Shown here piece after piece: positions 4,791 through 55,553 of a stretch of DNA of 64,000 nucleotides. Every line of letters starts with the position of its first letter. The stretch's first letter is position 1. The stretch is taken from the NCBI GenBank assembly GCA_034190245.1, contig JAXHTJ010000001.1, forward strand, positions 7,597-71,596, read 5' to 3'. The DNA is from Halobacteriota archaeon (GTDB lineage: Archaea > Halobacteriota > Syntropharchaeia > DAOWMC01). A program made the translations under genes and the position numbers. The notes beneath the pieces are model-generated. The model did no database searches. It was given only the letters and a program-made list of their open reading frames with translations, and was not told the DNA's origin.

Positions 4791-5395
4791 TCCAATCCCA
4801 ATTTGCTTCTTATCTTCACCACATTTTTCTCTACACTCTTGTTAACCTTCTCGTACAGGCTGTTACCATGTGCATCTATACCCACTGTTAGAGGGCCGAA
4901 ATCTTTTGCCTCAAATATCCATAGAGCCTCTGGCATCCCTATATCGAGCCAATGGACACCTTTCACCGCCGTCACGCCTTTTGCGGCAAGTATTGCAGCT
5001 CCACCCGTCATCGCCAGATACACGCAGCCGTATTCCTTCATAGCGTTTATCGTGGGCATGCTCATACCTCCTTTGCCGATTATCGCCCTTGCATTGAAGT
5101 TCTTTATGTAATCTGGTTCGAGCGAGTTCATCCTTGAACTGGTCGTGGGCCCAGCGGCAACCAATTCCCATCCTCCATTCTTCTCCATTACTATCGGACC
5201 GCAGTGAAATACTGCCGCACCATTTAGATCTACGGGTAAGTCTTCACCCTCTTCGTGATACTCCAGCGCCCTCATGTGGGCTTCATCCCTCGACGTGTAG
5301 ATCACGCCATCTAAATAGACGATATCTCCCAACTTCAGACTGCGCACATCTTCTTCATCTATCGGGGTTGTCAATCTAACATCCATATCAACCAC
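4787..5395 (-). CDS. Class I (Fe-S) fumarate hydratase / hydro-lyase beta subunit
   Basis: 202-aa protein homologous to the FumA C-terminal domain / TtdB. It overlaps the alpha-subunit gene by 4 nt, as expected for an operon. Confidence 0.8.
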   Translation of the reverse strand: MVDMDVRLTTPIDEEDVRSLKLGDIVYLDGVIYTSRDEAHMRALEYHEEGEDLPVDLNGAAVFHCGPIVMEKNGGWELVAAGPTTSSRMNSLEPDYIKNFNARAIIGKGGMSMPTINAMKEYGCVYLAMTGGAAILAAKGVTAVKGVHWLDIGMPEALWIFEAKDFGPLTVGIDAHGNSLYEKVNKSVEKNVVKIRSKLGLD

Positions 5396-7389: not shown

Positions 7390-8013
7390 ATGGTTCAAGA
7401 GTATGAAGAAGATTGGATTCCAAAAACCAGACTGGGTAGAATGGTAACTGAAGATAAAATTACCACCATAGAGGAGGCATTAGAATCAGGAATGGCGCTA
7501 AGGGAATATCAGATCGTCGATTTACTTGTGCCTGAACTGAGGGACGAGATACTTGATATAAATATGGTCCAGCGGATGACTGACTCTGGAAGGAGGGTGA
7601 AGTTCAGAGTTGTGGTTGCAGTTGGAAATGAGGATGGTTTCGTCGGAGTGGGGCAGGCGAGAGACGCCCAGGTCGGCCCTGCGATTAAAAAAGCGATAAA
7701 TGATGCAAAGTTGAACCTGATCAATGTTAAGCGGGGCTGTGGTTCCTGGGAGTGTGATTGTGAGCATGGGCACTCCATTCCATTTGAGGTGACCGGCAAA
7801 TGCGGTAGTGTTCAAGTTACCCTGAAGCCAGCACCGATGGGACTCGGTCTTGCATGTGGTGAGACGGCGAAGAAGGTTCTTGAATTGGGTGGTATAAAAG
7901 ATATCTGGGCAAAGTCCAAAGGGAGGACGCGTACCACACTGAACTTCGCAAAGGCGACGTTTGATGCATTGAAGATGACGACCGCTGTAAAACTCCCGCC
8001 GCAAGCTAAATAA
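7390..8013 (+). CDS. rps5: 30S ribosomal protein S5 (uS5)
   Basis: Carries the dsRBD-like and S5 C-terminal motifs (…[28 protein letters not shown]…). The ATG at 7390 lies 2 nt after the L18 stop; the track's TTG start at 7378 is less likely. Confidence 0.9.
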
Positions 8014-12977: not shown

Positions 12978-13568
12978 ATGTCAACCGTAAAAGAGGCAAT
13001 AGAAGGGAGAAGAAGCATAAGAAAGTACAAGCCAGATCCAGTACCGGATGAATCTCTCTTGCAGATCCTTGAGGCGGCACGGCTTGCACCATCAGGATCG
13101 AACACCCAGCCATGGCGTTTCATCGTTGTTAAGGGCGAGGAGACTAGGAAGAAGCTCAAGGAAGCTGCATTTAACCAGAGATTTGTCGGACAGGCACCGG
13201 TAGTAATCGTTTGCTGTGGCGATCTCACCTGTTGGAGGCAATTATCAAAGAGGGCCACTGATTTGACCCCTGTGATGGAGGAATGGGGTCTAAAAGACGT
13301 GACCTCACGGATGACGGCAACGGTCAGAAACGTCGCAATCGCAGTGGAGCACATGGTACTTCAGGCTGAAGAGCTTGGTCTTGGCACTTGCTGGGTCGGA
13401 CTCATCGACAGGAAGAAGGTGAGGGAGATGCTCAAGATACCGGATCATCTCGTGATTGTTTCTTTACTTCCCATCGGCTATCCTGCGGAAGATCCGGGAC
13501 AAAGGCCGAGATTTGGGCTCTATGATATCGCCTTTAGTGAAGATTATGGCAGAAGTTTTGAGGTATGA
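12978..13568 (+). CDS. Nitroreductase family protein
   Basis: RRSIRKY… and SGSNTQPW motifs. Confidence 0.75.
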   Translation: MSTVKEAIEGRRSIRKYKPDPVPDESLLQILEAARLAPSGSNTQPWRFIVVKGEETRKKLKEAAFNQRFVGQAPVVIVCCGDLTCWRQLSKRATDLTPVMEEWGLKDVTSRMTATVRNVAIAVEHMVLQAEELGLGTCWVGLIDRKKVREMLKIPDHLVIVSLLPIGYPAEDPGQRPRFGLYDIAFSEDYGRSFEV

Positions 13569-14035
13569 AGTTCTACTCAGATTTTGCAGATAAATATGAT
13601 GTAATGATCACCTGGAGCAGGCGAGAAGAGTTACAGGCCCCCTTCTTCAGAAAGGTTTTTGATAAGCACAATGTGAAATCAGTTTTAGATTGTGCCTGTG
13701 GTACCGGTTTTCACACGATCATGTTATCAAAGATGGGATATCATGTCGAAGGTTGCGATATCACTCCCGGAATGATCGAAAAATCCCGATTGAATGCTGC
13801 GAAGGATGGGTTGAATTTGAACTTCGTCCAATCTGACTTTAAAGAGATGGTTGGCAAATTCGATAAAAAATTTGAGGTGGATTCCACAGATTATAATCCG
13901 ATCTCAAAGGATAAGCTATCGGATCTGATGAAAAGAGCGGGTTTTGGTAAACTCAAATTTTATGGGGATTTTGACTTTACCGAATTTGATGAAAGAAAGA
14001 GTGAAAATCTTATTGTGGTTGGGATTAAAGGATGA
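13565..14035 (+). CDS. Class I SAM-dependent methyltransferase
   Basis: VLDCACGTG glycine-rich SAM motif. The ATGA start overlaps the upstream nitroreductase stop. Confidence 0.6.
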   Translation: MKFYSDFADKYDVMITWSRREELQAPFFRKVFDKHNVKSVLDCACGTGFHTIMLSKMGYHVEGCDITPGMIEKSRLNAAKDGLNLNFVQSDFKEMVGKFDKKFEVDSTDYNPISKDKLSDLMKRAGFGKLKFYGDFDFTEFDERKSENLIVVGIKG

Positions 14036-41842: not shown

Positions 41843-43222
41843 ATGCAGGTAGATGAGATCATAGATAGCCTCGTTACAATAGTAGGAAGAGAAAATGTTC
41901 TTTCTGGCGATGAGATCCCCGAAGAGTATGGACGCGACGAGGCACTCACTCTGAAGCCCTGCTTACCGGAGGTAGTGGTTAAACCAGAAAGCGCAGAAGA
42001 GGTATCAAAGATATTGAGTCTTGCTAATTCCTGGAAGATTCCGGTAACACCAAGAGGTGCAGGAACCGGTCTTTCCGGTGGTTGTGTGCCCCTCTATTCA
42101 GGCATACTTCTCTCCCTCGAACGAATGAATAAAATCATTGAGATCGATGAGGAAAATAGTGTGGCTGTTATTGAAACAGGTGTTGTTTTGGCAGATTTGT
42201 ACAAAGCTGTCGAAGCACGTGGACTATACTATCCGATCTATCCGGGAGAGGTGAGTGCCACAATCGGAGGAAATGTCGCTACGAATGCGGGCGGGATGCG
42301 GGCGGTGAGGTACGGTGTGACAAGACATTTTGTTCTGGGATTGGAAGCAGTATTGCCCACCGGGGAGATCATAAGCACCGGTGGAAAATATGTGAAAGTT
42401 TCAACCGGTTACGACCTAACCCAGCTAATCTGCGGCTCAGAAGGCACCCTAGCAGTGGTAACAAGGATAATACTAAAACTTCTCCCGCGTCCCAGAGCTA
42501 AGGCAACTCTTCTTGTTCCTTTCAAGGACGTGAGTGATGCAATCGGAACTGTTCCAATCATACTCAAATCCGGGGTGATCCCGGTAACAATCGAATTTTT
42601 GGAAAAATTTGGGCTAATAGGCATGGAGAGCTATACAAAGATGAAAGTTCCCATTGGAAAAGAAGCACGCAGTAAGGCAAGAGCCTATCTGATCATAGTC
42701 CTGGAAGAGAAGAGTTCCGAAGCGGCTTTCAAGGATGCCGAACTGATCTCCGATATCTGTATGGAGCATGGAGCAATAGACGTATTCATACCCTCCACCG
42801 AAAAAGATGGCCGGGAGCTTCTGGAGCTGAGGGAAAAGGCCTTTTATGCCACAAGGGATGCGGGTGCTTCAGATTTGATCGATGTAGTGGTCCCCCGTGG
42901 CGAGATACCGAAATTTTTGGAGAATATACGTGAGATATCTGCAAAATACTCAACAGTGATAGCTGGTGCAGGGCACGCCGGAGATGGAAATTTGCACATG
43001 GGAATAATGGTGCGGGATTCCGAGAAGAAGTCAAAGATACTCGAGGATATCTATCGAGCCGGAAGAGATCTTGGGGGGACAATTTCTGCTGAGCATGGTA
43101 TCGGTTGTGAGAAGAGAAGGTATCTACTAAAGATGGAAGACGAGGTAAAAATTGAGCTTATGAGAAGGATAAAAGAAGCCTTCGATCCAAATAAAATACT
43201 GAACCCTGGAAAGATTTTTTAG
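41843..43222 (+). CDS. FAD-linked oxidase (GlcD / D-lactate dehydrogenase family)
   Basis: N-terminal PCMH-type FAD-binding domain (PRGAGTGLSGG) and C-terminal FAD-oxidase domain. Confidence 0.7.
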   Translation: MQVDEIIDSLVTIVGRENVLSGDEIPEEYGRDEALTLKPCLPEVVVKPESAEEVSKILSLANSWKIPVTPRGAGTGLSGGCVPLYSGILLSLERMNKIIEIDEENSVAVIETGVVLADLYKAVEARGLYYPIYPGEVSATIGGNVATNAGGMRAVRYGVTRHFVLGLEAVLPTGEIISTGGKYVKVSTGYDLTQLICGSEGTLAVVTRIILKLLPRPRAKATLLVPFKDVSDAIGTVPIILKSGVIPVTIEFLEKFGLIGMESYTKMKVPIGKEARSKARAYLIIVLEEKSSEAAFKDAELISDICMEHGAIDVFIPSTEKDGRELLELREKAFYATRDAGASDLIDVVVPRGEIPKFLENIREISAKYSTVIAGAGHAGDGNLHMGIMVRDSEKKSKILEDIYRAGRDLGGTISAEHGIGCEKRRYLLKMEDEVKIELMRRIKEAFDPNKILNPGKIF

Positions 43223-50504: not shown

Positions 50505-51206
50505 CTACGGTCTGATTATCTGGTCATAACTCACGTTTGCCCTGACAATGCTCGGAAGATCCCCCCAGGTACCTATACGATCTCCACAGATGATCAGAAC
50601 ACCATCCACGCCATCAACCTCTTTTAAATTCTCAATTGCGCAATCTATAGAATCTACATCGGTCACAATATTACCTATGGCTGTAGCAGACGAATCTGCA
50701 AGAGAGGTATTTCTGGAAACAACAGTCACAGCATCGGCATTTCCAAAGCTTATAGAAGGGCCGATCTTCCCGGAGGATGTGCAGATACCGAGAATCAAAT
50801 TTCTGGGTTCAATCCTGAAGGCAAAATCTTTAATCTCACCGGCATAGATCCCCACAAGTACAGGTCTTTCATTTATCATCGCAATATCGCCACCGTTGTC
50901 AACGATGGCATCTGTAGCACCAGCATCGATCATCGCTTCAACAGCCAATTGTGAGATGGTTCCGGCAACCGCAGACATGGGGCCTATCCCTACCTTTGCA
51001 CTTGCATCGGTCATCCTCTTGACGATCTCAGGGGCATTCTTTGACTGTGGATAGGGCTCGAGAGTCGTTTTAAAGAAGGGGTCTTCTGCTATAAAGTGCT
51101 CCAATTCTCTTCTGTGGAGTACTATTGCCTCTTTTGCTACATCGATATATTCTTCTTCTGCGATTATCGTCAAAACTGTCTCTTTTATCTGGAATTTTGT
51201 CTTCAC
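50505..51206 (-). CDS. UPF0280-family protein (ApbE-like superfamily)
   Basis: 233 aa containing …IGPMSAVAGTISQLAVEAM…. Family assignment is from memory of archaeal UPF0280 proteins. Confidence 0.4.
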   Translation of the reverse strand: MKTKFQIKETVLTIIAEEEYIDVAKEAIVLHRRELEHFIAEDPFFKTTLEPYPQSKNAPEIVKRMTDASAKVGIGPMSAVAGTISQLAVEAMIDAGATDAIVDNGGDIAMINERPVLVGIYAGEIKDFAFRIEPRNLILGICTSSGKIGPSISFGNADAVTVVSRNTSLADSSATAIGNIVTDVDSIDCAIENLKEVDGVDGVLIICGDRIGTWGDLPSIVRANVSYDQIIRP

Positions 51207-51349: not shown

Positions 51350-52231
51350 ATGGGTTTATTTGCAAAAGAAGGTGAGTATGGGAGACAACTGAGATGGGGT
51401 AGATTATTTGGATTGTTCATTTTATTCATAATACTGTTTATACTTCTATTTTCAATGTTCGTCATAATCAGTGCCGGTGAGGTTGGTGTAAAATTTGATC
51501 CATTCCGTGGTGGTGTCCAGTCAGAGGAGTTTACAGAGGGATTTCATTTTAAGGCGCCGTGGGTACGTGTAGACAGGTACAACATCAAGACACATGACTA
51601 TACTATGAGTAGATTGGTGGAAGAAGGACAGGAGAAAAGAGACGACAGAATAAGAACCGTGACAAAAGAAGGTCTTTACGTAGATCTGGACCTGACAATC
51701 CTTTACAAGATCAATCCGATGAAGGCTGACGAGATAAGAAAAAGCATCGGTGTGGATGGTCAGTATCAAAAGATAGTTGTGAGACCAACGGTTCGAAACA
51801 GTGTGAGGGAAGTGATCAGCAACTACGATGCAGGGGATATTTATGGCGAAAAGAGACCTGTAGTAGAGCAGGAGATGTATAATAGGATATCTGATCAGCT
51901 GAGTGCCAGAGATGTCATTGTCGAAGGAGTGCTTTTAAGGGACGTTGGATTGCCATCAGAGCTTACAAAATCGATAGAAGAGAAGAAGACAGCTGAGCAA
52001 CAAGCACTGAGAATGGAGTATATTCTACAGCAAGAAAGACTGGAAAAAGAGCGAAAAATCATAGAAGCCGAAGGGATTACCAAGGCTAACGATATCATCG
52101 CAGGAAGTCTAACAAGGAACTACCTGACATGGTACTGGATCGACAACCTGGATACTCATGAGAGTGTGATTTACGTGCCTGTAGGAGAGGGAGGAGTTCC
52201 GCTGTTTAAAGAAGTCTCCGAAGTTCCGTAG
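51350..52231 (+). CDS. SPFH/band-7 (prohibitin/HflK/C-like) membrane protein
   Basis: N-terminal TM followed by an SPFH domain and a coiled-coil region. Confidence 0.75.
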   Translation: MGLFAKEGEYGRQLRWGRLFGLFILFIILFILLFSMFVIISAGEVGVKFDPFRGGVQSEEFTEGFHFKAPWVRVDRYNIKTHDYTMSRLVEEGQEKRDDRIRTVTKEGLYVDLDLTILYKINPMKADEIRKSIGVDGQYQKIVVRPTVRNSVREVISNYDAGDIYGEKRPVVEQEMYNRISDQLSARDVIVEGVLLRDVGLPSELTKSIEEKKTAEQQALRMEYILQQERLEKERKIIEAEGITKANDIIAGSLTRNYLTWYWIDNLDTHESVIYVPVGEGGVPLFKEVSEVP

Positions 52232-52493
52232 ACTTCTTGAGCGAATGTATCATGACCGGTATCGCCTTTATCTTATTTTGCTCGCACATTTCTAAATCAA
52301 AAATAATATATAGCATAAACATAAAGAGCATGAATCATAGGTCTGTTATACTTTAAGCACGGCTCAATGGACAAATAGAACCGATTTTTATTTCTTAAAA
52401 CTCCAATATTATTTTTTGTGGTACATGGGTTTCACATATGCATAAAGTTTATATAGTATTAATGGAAATAAGGTCACTAGAGGGATAACAATT

Positions 52494-53834
52494 ATGGATC
52501 AAGACGAAAAATTGGTTAGAGCACCTGGTAGAATAACCACACAACAGAGTGAATTTCTCGAAGGGGAGGTCAGAAGTGGCAGGTTTGCCTCGGTGAGCGA
52601 AGCTCTCAGAGCAAGTATAAATGCTTATGGGCAGCAGATATTAAGGGACGAAGTTTACCTTATAGGCGAAGCTTTGATGGGTGATGAGCCGGAACTAGCG
52701 CACATCGATCTTATGATAGGGGATAAAAAAGGCCAGATAGGGTTAGCATTTGCGAACAGCATAAGCCAATTATCAGTAGGCCACACACCCCTACTTGCAG
52801 TGGTGAGACCCAACCTACCATGCAAACCTTACACGCTTGTGGTACCCAAGGTGACTATCAAGGACATGGAGGACACGGGTAAGATCTTTGGTCCTGCACA
52901 AGCAGCAGTGGCAAAAGCGATAGCCGATTCCGTCGAAGAGGGAGTCATACCGAAAGAGAGTGTTGAAGACCTCGTAGCTATTGTAAGTGTCTTTATCCAT
53001 CCTGAAGCAAAAGATTACAATAAAATTTTTAGGTATAATTATGGTGCGACCAAATTAGCTCTTAAACGGGCAATGGAAGGATTTCCATCTGTTGATAAGG
53101 TCCTTTATGAGAAGGACAGGTCCACTCACCCTGTGATGGGATTTAAAGTGACACGTCTGTGGGATCCACCATACCTCCAGGTTGCCCTAGATATAACAGA
53201 ATGGGAAAAAGTAAGCAGAGTTCTGAAGGATTTGCCCAAGAATGATCACTTGATCATAGAAGTGGGCACACCACTGGTGAAGAGGTTTGGTATTGAGGTG
53301 ATAAACAAGATAAGAGAGGTACGCCCGGACACTTTTATCATCGCCGATCTGAAGATACTGGACACCGGAAACCTGGAAGCCAGAATGGCATCTGATTATG
53401 CTGCTGACGCCGTGGTGATCTCCGGGCTGGCACCTATACCAACCATAGAAAAGGCGATTGAAGAGGCAAATAAAACTGGCATATATTCTGTAATCGACAT
53501 GTTAAACGTCTCCAATCCGATAGACCTCCTAAAAAAATTGAGTGTGAAACCGGGAGTTGTCGAGCTGCACAGGGCGATAGACGCAGAACTTGCCGGGAGT
53601 GAACACAAGTGGGGAGACATCTCAAAGATTAGAGAGATAGACGAAAAGATTGTTGTTGCGGTCGCTGGAGGAATCAGGGTTGATAATGCTCCTGAAGCGT
53701 TGAAATCCGGCGCCAATATCCTAGTAGTCGGGCGGGCGATAACCAATGCCAAGGACATTGAAGGGGCTGCAAGAAGATTCCTGTCGCTGATGAAAGAAGA
53801 GATAGATCAGTTCAGAGTGATGACGGACTTCTGA
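52494..53834 (+). CDS. fae-hps: Bifunctional formaldehyde-activating enzyme / 3-hexulose-6-phosphate synthase (Fae-Hps) with an unusual N-terminal RHH-like extension
   Basis: Fae core …[26 protein letters not shown]…. The HPS (OMPDC-like) part includes …[11 protein letters not shown]… and …[12 protein letters not shown]…. The first ~50 aa ([30 protein letters not shown]) look like a CopG/ParD ribbon-helix-helix. Confidence 0.8.
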
Positions 53835-53909: not shown

Positions 53910-54407
53910 TTACATCAACAGAAAGGCCACTCCGATAAATATCAGGATCAAGTGCAGTGCTGCCAGCCATGCCATAACTCCAGAAATAATCAGTTTGATC
54001 GAGGGTAATCCACCACCTCCTCTGACTCTACCAATACCCTCTATGGAACTACTCCACTTCTCTTCAAAATCATCTATACTCTCCTTAAAAGTGTACATGT
54101 TGGTTGATATAGTGCCAAGGCTCTTTCCAAGCTCCCTGAAAGATCTGCCAACAAGCGGCAAAGAACCACCAATATCAAAAAATATTCTCGACACACCATC
54201 TATAATAGGTGTCGATGTCCCCAGAAATTCACTGGCGTTGTGTACCGTGCTGTTTAAGGTGTCTGCTGTTTCAGCAAAATTATCAAGACTACCGACTATT
54301 CCAAAAAGAGCGCTCCTGCGAATTGAGAGATAACCGAATATTACAGCCAGGATACCGACAGAACCAAAAACAATCAAGAATATTGCAAGGATATCAACAA
54401 ATGTCAT
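53910..54407 (-). CDS. Hypothetical membrane protein (TM helices at both termini)
   Basis: Hydrophobicity pattern only. Confidence 0.4.
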   Translation of the reverse strand: MTFVDILAIFLIVFGSVGILAVIFGYLSIRRSALFGIVGSLDNFAETADTLNSTVHNASEFLGTSTPIIDGVSRIFFDIGGSLPLVGRSFRELGKSLGTISTNMYTFKESIDDFEEKWSSSIEGIGRVRGGGGLPSIKLIISGVMAWLAALHLILIFIGVAFLLM

Positions 54408-54746: not shown

Positions 54747-55553
54747 TCATAACTTTAAAGCAAGCATACTTGCAAGTTTAATTGCCCGTCCATAACTGTC
54801 ACTTGCTCTTGATGTGTCGATAAAGACTTTATCCATCAAAATGGGGGCTCCAAAACCCATGCCACCACCAAGTAGCACCAGTGTTCTGAAGATCAGGTTT
54901 CCAGATATTCCATCCGGTGCGATAATGATGTTTGATTCTTTTACAGCGTCCTCAATCAAGATCTGGTGGTGTTTTGCACAGATACCCATTCCGGTAACTT
55001 TCTGTACAATTAGCTCGGCCTCTTCTAAACTCCTGTCCACAACTTCACTGCGGCCTACATCACCGAACCTGCCTCCAGACAGAACTCCGACCTTTGCCTC
55101 GAGGTCGAATCTCTTTAAAAGCTCGCTTCCGAGCCTGATGATCTCGATCTTTTCTTCTGCGCTCTTCCCCTCGTCAATACCAACAGGAGAAAGGAAGAAG
55201 GTGTCCTTAGAAGTGGTCTGTAATAGCGCCATTCTGTAGATCTTTTCCAGATTCGTCTGTGTTTTTAGCTGATTTAAAGTCTCCGAAGCTCGCAGATTTC
55301 CCCTCACCGCCGCATCTATCTCTCCTTCAACAAGCAGGCTGATAAGTTCTTTTTCTGGACTCTTCGTATCGATTATTTCGATATCAGTTCCGGTTGAAGA
55401 AATCTTCTCTTCATCTCCAACAAGCACAATATCTGCAAAATCTTCTGCGTCTATTGCATAAAAAATGACGTTCTCATGGGGATAATCGACACCGATTCCC
55501 ACTCGGACTATACTACCTTTTGTGATGGTATCAATTTTTCTTTGCAGATTCAT
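54747..55553 (-). CDS. Phosphate acetyl/butyryl-transferase-fold (Pta/PlsX-like) protein
   Basis: C-terminal …IIIAPDGISGNLIFRTLVLLGGGMGFGAPIL… resembles the Pta …PDLEAGNIGYK…G.IGPIL… segment. Confidence 0.45.
   Translation of the reverse strand: MNLQRKIDTITKGSIVRVGIGVDYPHENVIFYAIDAEDFADIVLVGDEEKISSTGTDIEIIDTKSPEKELISLLVEGEIDAAVRGNLRASETLNQLKTQTNLEKIYRMALLQTTSKDTFFLSPVGIDEGKSAEEKIEIIRLGSELLKRFDLEAKVGVLSGGRFGDVGRSEVVDRSLEEAELIVQKVTGMGICAKHHQILIEDAVKESNIIIAPDGISGNLIFRTLVLLGGGMGFGAPILMDKVFIDTSRASDSYGRAIKLASMLALKL

Follow-up and report, generated by a model that had tools for sequence, protein, structure and literature searches.

Introduction

To our knowledge, enzymes that double as transcription factors are hardly documented in archaea; in bacteria they form a small, well-studied class that includes PutA and BirA. 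Here we describe an archaeal gene in which a predicted DNA-binding domain of the ribbon-helix-helix (RHH) type is joined to a bifunctional enzyme of one-carbon metabolism. The gene lies in a 64,000-nucleotide stretch (hereafter the window) of contig JAXHTJ010000001.1, positions 7,597 to 71,596, from assembly GCA_034190245.1 of a Halobacteriota archaeon (Syntropharchaeia, DAOWMC01). Its open reading frame (ORF; 52494–53834, plus strand) encodes 446 amino acids (aa), in which a 54-residue N-terminal extension is in frame with a complete fusion of formaldehyde-activating enzyme and 3-hexulose-6-phosphate synthase (Fae-Hps).

The closest functional analogue is PutA, a trigger enzyme in which an RHH domain likewise precedes a bifunctional enzyme at the N-terminus. 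It recognises GTTGCA motifs, and its switch is redox-driven membrane binding. Trifunctional PutA of E. coli and Salmonella is described as an autogenous repressor that binds operators in its own control region (PMC5293562). PutA differs in its enzymes, a proline dehydrogenase and a pyrroline-5-carboxylate (P5C) dehydrogenase that are unrelated to Fae and Hps, in being bacterial and in acting at another type of promoter, and the RHH domain of RHH-Fae-Hps is ParD-like. We propose by analogy that RHH-Fae-Hps may work like PutA, to which it would be related by fold alone.

In sequence and fold, the closest relatives of the extension are the ParD antitoxins (PF03693, COG3609; PDB 3kxe, 7b22, 8c24, and 5ceg/6x0a), which share with it the RHH topology and the signature F-[LI]-x3-[VI]-x2-G-R-[FY]-x-S-[VA]-S-E-[AV]-[LMIV]-R. 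ParD proteins repress their own promoters via palindromic operators. They are free-standing proteins of ~80 aa with a C-terminal toxin-neutralising tail, encoded next to parE, whereas RHH-Fae-Hps has a linker and a 392-aa enzyme in place of the tail and no adjoining toxin gene; the fusion family has a ribbon sequence of its own, R-x-P-G-R-I-T.

In NikR and MetJ, an RHH DNA-binding module is coupled to a second, small-molecule-sensing part. This partner domain is a dedicated sensor, in contrast to the bifunctional enzyme of RHH-Fae-Hps. Small RHH proteins such as CdrS act as archaeal transcription regulators (PMC7439475). Beyond the RHH fold, none of NikR, MetJ and CdrS has a significant sequence relationship to the extension.

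Fae-Hps converts hexulose-6-phosphate to ribulose-5-phosphate and hands the formaldehyde set free in the reaction on to tetrahydromethanopterin (H4MPT); in archaea the enzyme supplies ribulose-5-phosphate via the reverse ribulose monophosphate (RuMP) route and detoxifies the formaldehyde released. Canonical archaeal enzymes (NF009833; Methanosarcina barkeri type, 390–397 aa) have the same full-length domains and conserved catalytic motifs, and those of Halobacteriota and ANME-1 are 68–75% identical to the window core. Their genes differ in having their own ATG or TTG at Fae Met1 with the promoter directly upstream, and in lacking both the RHH domain and the TGTG-N12-CACA palindrome described below. 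A literature search found no paper combining Fae with RHH, CopG, or ParD, and no description of RHH-Fae-Hps.

A Candidate Operator Co-Conserved with the Fusion

The upstream regions of fusion genes share almost nothing but a TATA box and a 20-bp inverted repeat, TGTG[A/T]CAC-N5-(G)G[T/A]CACA (consensus TGTGACACCTAGAGGTCACA), which ends 11–14 nt before the TATA box. In most lineages a single distal TGTGACACA box is found ~50 nt further upstream of the palindrome. The conserved 20-bp inverted repeat in the fusion promoters is new here. When scored in the frame TGTG-N12-CACA, all 74 dereplicated fusion promoters match at 7 or more of the 8 positions and 58 match at all 8, compared with 33 and 1, respectively, of 1480 shuffled sequences. 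Information content is ~2 bits per position in the boxes and ~0–0.3 in the flanks. It reaches 1–1.8 bits per position in the TATA box, including its equivalent in Bathyarchaeia-type loci, GTTAAATA, which stands at a fixed distance from the operator. The centres of the two operator boxes are 11 bp apart, which is one helical turn.

The palindrome is also confined to this position. Across the 331 kb of loci retrieved, the full motif was counted 68 times, each copy 60–90 nt before the start codon and none elsewhere, and the single box falls into two positional peaks with only 5 stray copies in the same loci. In a closed Bathyarchaeia chromosome (CP070640.1, 1.5 Mb), the 21 kb scanned contain the motif and the 8-bp box at this promoter alone. 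The only exact match to TGTGNNAC-N7-TCAC in the window is the candidate operator itself; since the pattern matches the opposite strand as well, the window operator is palindromic. The controls, four distinct promoters taken from the nearest fae-hps genes lacking the extension, carry none of the motif components. Each of these genes starts with a TTG or ATG of its own at Fae position 1, is closely preceded by an in-frame stop, and has a TATA box. At the level of sequence, then, palindrome and fusion are conserved together, and the palindrome is specific to the promoters of the fusion genes. The first-pass annotation of the window had suggested that the extension might be autoregulatory, and a co-conserved palindromic candidate operator in the gene's own promoter lends that idea strong, if indirect, support.

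Some clades add further detail around this core arrangement. All six loci of the Halobacteriota clade (the window, L001, L002, L004, L006, and L022) conserve a GTCAC half-box, which equals the operator box G-W-CAC in its right half and may have a role in repression. In a subclade of four loci (L026, L027, L029, and L037), the operator reads GTGTCAC-N4-GTGACAC, lies at about −52 from the start codon, and directly abuts a TATA-like box, TATTTAAG; a protein bound there would occlude the TATA box and the B-recognition element (BRE). Bathyarchaeia loci conserve a DUF371 gene as their upstream neighbour on the same strand (L046, 949–1380; L109, 9302–9757). Its TGA stop lies inside the distal TGTGACACA box in some loci and the reading frame differs in others, so the distal box is not conserved for coding reasons.

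An RNA element was considered as another identity for the palindrome and rejected. There was no Rfam match. Conservation of the arms is by sequence identity, and Watson–Crick pairing at the variable symmetric pair 4/15 holds in just 23 of 39 cases. The site is located 5' of the TATA box, and at some loci in a divergent intergenic region. A repeat search of the window intergenic region returned AT-rich pairs only and missed the operator.

The Extension as a ParD-Type RHH Domain

The extension had been likened at first pass to the RHH modules of CopG and ParD. As a family, it belongs to the RHH superfamily, ParD type, by sequence-profile comparison: a 15-member extension profile aligned by hhalign to a 10-member ParD profile with a probability of 98.8% and an E-value of 4.2e-17 over 36 columns. 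All 10 members of the ParD profile match PF03693 (best E-value 5e-29), as do 14 of the 15 extension family members, and 9 of the 15 match RHH_1/CopG; the extension also has a weak match to the NCBIfam CdrS model (E-value 0.0056). Five of the six best matches in a PDB sequence search were ParD-type antitoxins (3kxe, 7b22, 8c24, 6x0a, and 5ceg), which align via the signature given above, with marginal E-values of 0.05–1.1.

Structure prediction with AlphaFold2 (AF2) gave a compatible picture. The model of the extension alone has an extended N-terminal segment followed by helices at residues 16–28 and 34–53, with a predicted local distance difference test (pLDDT) score of 81–94 in residue blocks 11–40. 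The full-length model places the helices at 16–27 and 34–48, at a mediocre pLDDT of 69.8 that leaves the packing of RHH against Fae unreliable. The best PDB matches by Foldseek were ParD1 of M. tuberculosis (8c24; template modelling score 0.67–0.71, root-mean-square deviation 1.1 Å, 40 columns) and ParD3 (6x0a), at E-values of 0.46–1.3, which are not significant for a domain this small. Taken with the purifying selection and the conservation in two phyla reported below, the profile–profile homology to ParD and the PDB sequence and fold matches bear out the CopG/ParD-like assignment.

Sixteen residues, R9, P11, G12, R13, I14, T15, Q18, L22, V26, G29, S33, S35, E36, A37, R39, and A40, are invariant across the family. 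Side chains along the segment V8-R9-A10-P11-G12-R13-I14-T15 switch by turns between hydrophobic or small and polar or basic, as in a ribbon, and R9, P11, R13, and T15, which alternate outward on the predicted ribbon, are invariant across phyla. Of these, R9, R13, and T15 would face the DNA, and the domain as a whole would be expected to dimerise and to bind specific DNA sequences via paired strands. The linker that follows varies in both length and sequence among the 15 diverse members.

The likeness to ParD stops where the antitoxin function would begin. The hhalign match is limited to ParD columns 8–43; after residue 46 come the variable linker and then the Fae core, and the toxin-neutralising tail is absent from the extension. 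In the window, fae-hps is flanked upstream by a Band_7/SPFH gene and downstream by minus-strand genes encoding 165 and 268 aa, with no adjoining parE/relE-type toxin gene; none was found in related loci either. With neither a ParD tail nor a toxin gene, the extension is best described as a ParD-type RHH domain and not as an antitoxin.

Distribution and Evolution of the Fusion

Searched with the extension profile, the GTDB representative genomes yielded the same in-frame fusion (446–450 aa) in two metagenome-assembled genomes (MAGs) named "Halobacteriota archaeon ... tar_biofilm", four Bathyarchaeia MAGs, and one Patescibacteria-binned contig; the next-best matches were free-standing alphaproteobacterial ParD proteins of ~80 aa. 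The contig labelled "Patescibacteria group bacterium" (DATLAV010000199.1) has a typical archaeal RHH-Fae-Hps gene with operator and archaeal TATA box, and is probably mis-binned. A metagenome scan yielded 118 loci. Wherever R-x-PGRIT could be located in a fetched locus and the frame traced, the extension runs into the core, with GE[AG]L.G at aa 57–64 if the start is well defined. The in-frame joining of an RHH-like extension to Fae-Hps, noted at first for the window, recurs at every related locus where the ORF is traceable, and goes far beyond what chance would produce.

With a Bathyarchaeia fusion as query, nearly all of the best 120 clusters (90% identity), down to 67% identity, are 446–452 aa long and match at full coverage. 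Clusters with the fusion number more than 100 and belong mainly to Bathyarchaeia. They are labelled "Fae/Hps" only, with Fae and OMPdecase as their only Pfam domains, and a few PGAP calls are trimmed to 402–411 aa. The module had been called unusual for a one-carbon enzyme; the fusion is no rarity of this genome, and across a large Bathyarchaeia-type clade the enzyme normally takes this form. An exhaustive search of 1.84 billion representative proteins found no close free-standing homolog of the extension: six of the seven matches with E-values below 1e-10 were fragments of fusions, and the seventh was a repetitive 638-aa protein. A word-indexed homolog search with the 54-aa extension alone was too insensitive a method, returning a single match (P0121).

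In a tree of the enzyme core (neighbour-joining, core alone, without bootstrap), the Bathyarchaeia-type fusions form one clade, and the window clade is nested among Halobacteriota enzymes that have no extension. The window core is 68–75% identical to these Halobacteriota enzymes, compared to 52–59% for the Bathyarchaeia fusions. The window-type and Bathyarchaeia-type clades nevertheless share the RHH domain (44–57% identity), the operator frame, and the operator–TATA spacing, so that RHH domain and operator occur together on two non-sister enzyme clades. Either a promoter–operator–RHH module was transferred to a gene already in place, or there were repeated losses of the domain; the candidate operator and the RHH domain stay together under either history.

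A third lineage is represented by L023 (Ga0315282_10138184), which has a near-perfect palindrome, TGTGGTAC-TACA-GTACCACA, at about −87 from the start and the ribbon sequence RITTEQ. Its ORF ends at 277 aa, possibly via a frameshift. The L023 palindrome appears to link the window-type half-site to a symmetric ancestral operator.

Proposed Autoregulation and Competing Explanations

We consider it likely that the three-part protein (ParD-type RHH domain, linker, and Fae-Hps) binds the palindrome in its own promoter and sets its own transcription, most probably by autorepression. In this scheme RHH domains would be paired via the oligomeric enzyme to form a two-stranded ribbon, and the ribbon would bind the 20-bp palindrome just upstream of the BRE/TATA of its own gene. 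The two GTG-W-CAC-type boxes, with centres 11 bp apart, would be bound as tandem RHH dimers. The DNA-bound enzyme would then control its own transcription, most likely repressing it as ParD, CopG, and PutA do, and, more speculatively, ligand occupancy of the enzyme part might modulate DNA binding. A response to ligands would be physiologically sensible because archaeal Fae-Hps supplies ribulose-5-phosphate and detoxifies formaldehyde. Autorepression is favoured for three reasons: it is how the characterised RHH proteins of the ParD, CopG, and PutA types act, a half-box stands at the predicted transcription start in the window clade, and the operator abuts the TATA box in the subclade of L026, L027, L029, and L037.

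Several points weigh against this interpretation. Archaeal sites upstream of BRE/TATA often go with activation and not with repression; with the operator in that position, activation is possible too and the regulatory sign could be either. The Fae of M. extorquens is a pentamer, and its 10 PDB chains in 2 entries are consistent with this; RHH domains would have to pair on an oligomer of this kind. The controls number 4 promoters only, and the 74 fusion promoters are related by descent, so that their count overstates independence. The window operator itself is a degenerate version, and the distal box has been lost there. Taken alone, the window extension scores below the cutoffs of both PF03693 (E-value 0.006; 17.4 bits, cutoff 21) and TIGR02606 (E-value 2.4e-5; 24.3 bits, cutoff 46.2), and the AF2 monomer models form two helices without the strand, as may be explained by the ribbon being expected only in a dimer. 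At residue 16, T accompanies the box TGTGGTAC (7/7), and Q, K, or R accompanies TGTG[AT]CAC (49/50); this suggestive link between residue and operator variant reflects a single phylogenetic split.

A competing explanation accepts the RHH-like domain as real and translated, and holds that it does not bind this DNA: it would be an oligomerisation or docking module, and the palindrome the site of a separate transcription factor. We think this unlikely. In its favour, the binding of the palindrome by the RHH domain is deduced from their co-occurrence, ParD-type RHH domains are also reported to drive higher-order oligomers (PMC8251345), and the operator's place ahead of the TATA box is one used by many archaeal regulators. 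It does not readily account for the palindrome being present in 74/74 promoters with the domain and 0/4 without it, for domain and palindrome travelling together onto a phylogenetically different enzyme core, or for the invariance of the predicted base-reading ribbon residues next to a linker that is free to vary; box centres 11 bp apart also fit tandem RHH dimers. Co-occurrence of this kind suggests that the RHH domain is what binds the palindrome.

Separately, chain B of PDB 8ub7 ("Avd", 290 aa) has a Fae-like domain at residues 128–286 (E-value 2.7e-42), which suggests that N-terminal fusions to the Fae fold are structurally tolerated.

We likewise give only a small chance to the protein being mainly a transcription factor of a wider regulon (e.g., pentose-phosphate or C1 genes) with its own promoter as one target of many. 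The scans covered the window, the fetched loci, and 21 kb of one chromosome, which leaves room for such targets, and TGTGGTAC is present in 4 copies in the window vs. 0.83 expected, among them the operator-like TGTGGTACCGGTTTTCACA at 13697. The extra window sites, however, are inside ORFs, and the one at 13697 is also wrongly spaced; no second full motif was found in 331 kb of flanks, and neither a second motif nor a second 8-bp box in 21 kb of the Bathyarchaeia chromosome.

The individual candidates for further sites were rejected as follows. One-mismatch operator matches at 42244 and 56106 are inside ORFs and were taken as chance, as were the TGTGGTAC copies at 7931, 13697, and 52838, all in coding sequence, and the loose-frame motif matches in L024, L046, L052, and L053, which are unrelated sequence. 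The site at 13697–13715 is close to the fae-hps operator with a spacer 1 nt shorter; it lies within ORF 13565–14035 and encodes C-G-T-G-F-H-T, a glycine motif like that of S-adenosylmethionine (SAM) methyltransferases, so its likeness to the operator is probably due to chance. At 52838–52845 a second TGTGGTAC is followed by CCAAGGTGAC inside the fae coding region (residues L-V-V-P-K-V-T). The sequence GGTCACA is not enriched in the window (5 copies vs. 6 expected).

Translation and Integrity of the Fusion

Among ~6000 Fae-Hps homologs, nearly all are 390–397 aa long. Of the three closest relatives of the window protein (85–86% identity), two are called at 446 aa and the third (L001) at 393 aa by PGAP, with a start at ATT 5001; the 446-aa frame is nonetheless open at L001 4842–6182. 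The first-pass annotation had proposed an alignment of orthologs as a check, and the extension proves to be kept both in these closest relatives and across two archaeal phyla. Four relatives at ~85% identity retain the 446-aa ORF, none of them with a start codon where Fae usually begins. By the Nei-Gojobori method, the ratio of nonsynonymous to synonymous divergence (dN/dS) is 0.02–0.10 in the extension and 0.03–0.07 in the enzyme core, with an extension dS of 0.6–2.3 (saturated). Given so low a ratio at such dS values, the extension is, by this comparative measure, a translated domain under purifying selection.

The opposing explanation is that the extension is an untranslated open leader, with translation from a non-canonical codon at the Fae core. 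Gene calling appears to speak for it, since PGAP called the L001 ortholog at 393 aa from its ATT and some Bathyarchaeia orthologs at 402–411 aa. Against it stand the dN/dS values at saturated dS, the conservation of the protein sequence in two phyla, and the homology of the extension to ParD. In addition, the codon at the Fae Met1 position varies (GTT, ATT, ACT, or ACC across four sequences), and both a TATA-like box and a Shine-Dalgarno (SD)-like GAGGGAT, invariant in the clade, sit directly upstream of the extension's ATG. A start-type codon (ATG, GTG, or TTG) falls within five codons of the Fae core in 8 of 71 unique fusions and at the Met1 position in 1 of 71. We regard the leader as very improbable and effectively refuted.

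The DNA-binding-type domain is covalently joined to the enzyme, in a single ORF without a conserved internal start. It had been claimed that no further in-frame start lies between 52494 and the Fae core, apart from an ATG that would delete conserved Fae residues. Taken literally this does not hold, as TTG at 52512 (codon 7) and GTG at 52593 (codon 34) exist; in substance it stands, neither being conserved (they are TTA and GTA in relatives) nor giving a normal Fae N-terminus. The ribosome-binding site noted ahead of 52494 corresponds to an SD-like, purine-rich AGAGGGAT 7 nt 5' of the ATG.

PGAP trims the RHH domain in several orthologs (L001 at 5001, ATT; L109 at 10001; P0209, P0242, P0258, and P0260). 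The trimmed calls are 393 or 402–411 aa long and start at ATT or at an internal ATG or GTG. Other orthologs are called at full length, so that annotation is inconsistent, and the RHH domain is named in neither set. In L005, on a contig shared with L032, an in-frame TAG at 5238–5240 replaces a conserved Fae Lys codon (GD-K-xG) and splits the fusion into calls of 79 and 366 aa, whereas the close relative L024 reads through; the TAG could be a sequencing error, a pseudogene mutation, or a recoded stop.

Least credible of all is that an artefact of assembly, a frameshift, or a chimera joined a separate small RHH gene to fae-hps, a suspicion raised at first pass and nourished by the origin of the window in a MAG and by the split L005 relative: it is refuted by an independent Logan assembly (run SRR24907504) that is 100% identical to the window over 1941 nt spanning the junction, by the recurrence of this architecture in more than 100 lineages (seen in 45 distinct, complete fusion ORFs from the loci retrieved and in more than 100 protein clusters at 90% identity), and by the lack of any free-standing ortholog of the RHH part. 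An identical protein, called full length, is in NCBI as MDY6964395.1.

Domain Layout and Neighbouring Genes

Fae was identified at aa 57–215 by PF08714 (E-value 2.8e-70), with TIGR03126 (1.8e-76) and PDB 1y5y (8.8e-43) in agreement, and Hps/OMPdecase at aa 226–429 by PF00215 (2.8e-37), with PDB Hps matches 9lj9, 3f4w, and 3ajx. The NCBIfam Fae-Hps equivalog NF009833 matched with 656.1 bits (cutoff 274), its positions 2–392 corresponding to aa 55–446. The usual Fae Met1 thus corresponds to V54 (GTT) and residues 1–54 are extra, close to the ~50 residues first estimated. With both domains at full length and a score above the curated cutoff, the protein belongs to the Fae-Hps family. The motifs AH70xDL (Fae) and D285-x-K287-x-x-D290 (Hps) are invariant in a 36-sequence alignment, and the Fae-Hps part is apparently an intact enzyme, predicted to be active. 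Transcription is predicted to start near 52478. Coordinates are collected in Table 1.

Table 1. Promoter elements and protein domains of the RHH-Fae-Hps gene, in window coordinates; functional assignments are predictions.
Feature	Position	Strand	Remarks
Candidate operator TGTGGTACATGGGTTTCACA, 20-bp inverted repeat (frame TGTG-N12-CACA)	52417–52436		11 nt upstream of TATA box
TATA-box-like TTTATATA (archaeal promoter)	52448–52455	+	Invariant in 4-locus alignment of window clade
GTCAC half-box	52473–52477	+	Between TATA box and start codon, near predicted transcription start
Shine-Dalgarno-like AGAGGGAT, purine-rich	52479–52486	+	7 nt before ATG; GAGGGAT invariant in clade alignment
ParD-type RHH domain, aa 1–46	52494–52631	+	Ribbon V8–T15, helix A 16–28, G29-R-F-A-S-V-S-E loop, helix B from 34 (predicted)
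Variable linker, aa 47–54	52632–52655	+	Joins RHH to Fae; codon 54 (GTT) at usual Fae Met1 position
Fae (formaldehyde-activating enzyme) domain, aa 55–215	52656–53138	+	PF08714, TIGR03126, PDB 1y5y
Hps (3-hexulose-6-phosphate synthase, OMP-decarboxylase fold), aa 226–446 and stop codon	53169–53834	+	PF00215, PDB, D285-x-K287-x-x-D290

The Band_7/SPFH gene (51350–52231) stands between an ApbE-like gene (50505–51206, minus strand) and fae-hps in the window only; in L001 and L002 the ApbE-like gene is the direct divergent neighbour of fae-hps. The two minus-strand genes downstream, at 53910–54407 (165 aa, membrane-like) and 54747–55553 (268 aa), have no Pfam match and are syntenic downstream of fae-hps in L001, L003, and L004.

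Implications

Because of the "Fae/Hps" database labels and of PGAP trimming to ATT or internal starts, the RHH domain is invisible in current annotation. The sharply defined candidate operator at a fixed distance from the TATA box makes the autoregulation hypothesis directly testable with one protein and one oligonucleotide, and the promoter could offer a clean system for studying how the basal transcription machinery of archaea is affected by a regulator placed immediately 5' of BRE/TATA.

As a bolder and distinctly tentative possibility, RHH-Fae-Hps could be the first archaeal trigger enzyme of the PutA type, with binding to TGTG-N12-CACA that responds to ligands (formaldehyde, H4MPT, or hexulose- and ribulose-phosphate) and with promoter, operator, and RHH domain forming a portable cassette that moved between phyla. 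Bathyarchaeia are a large, uncultured, and globally abundant sediment lineage, and in these archaea, as in some alkane- or methane-related Halobacteriota, a central carbon enzyme normally begins with an unannotated RHH domain. If the trigger-enzyme proposal is true, pentose and formaldehyde flux would be coupled directly to transcription in Bathyarchaeia and some Halobacteriota.

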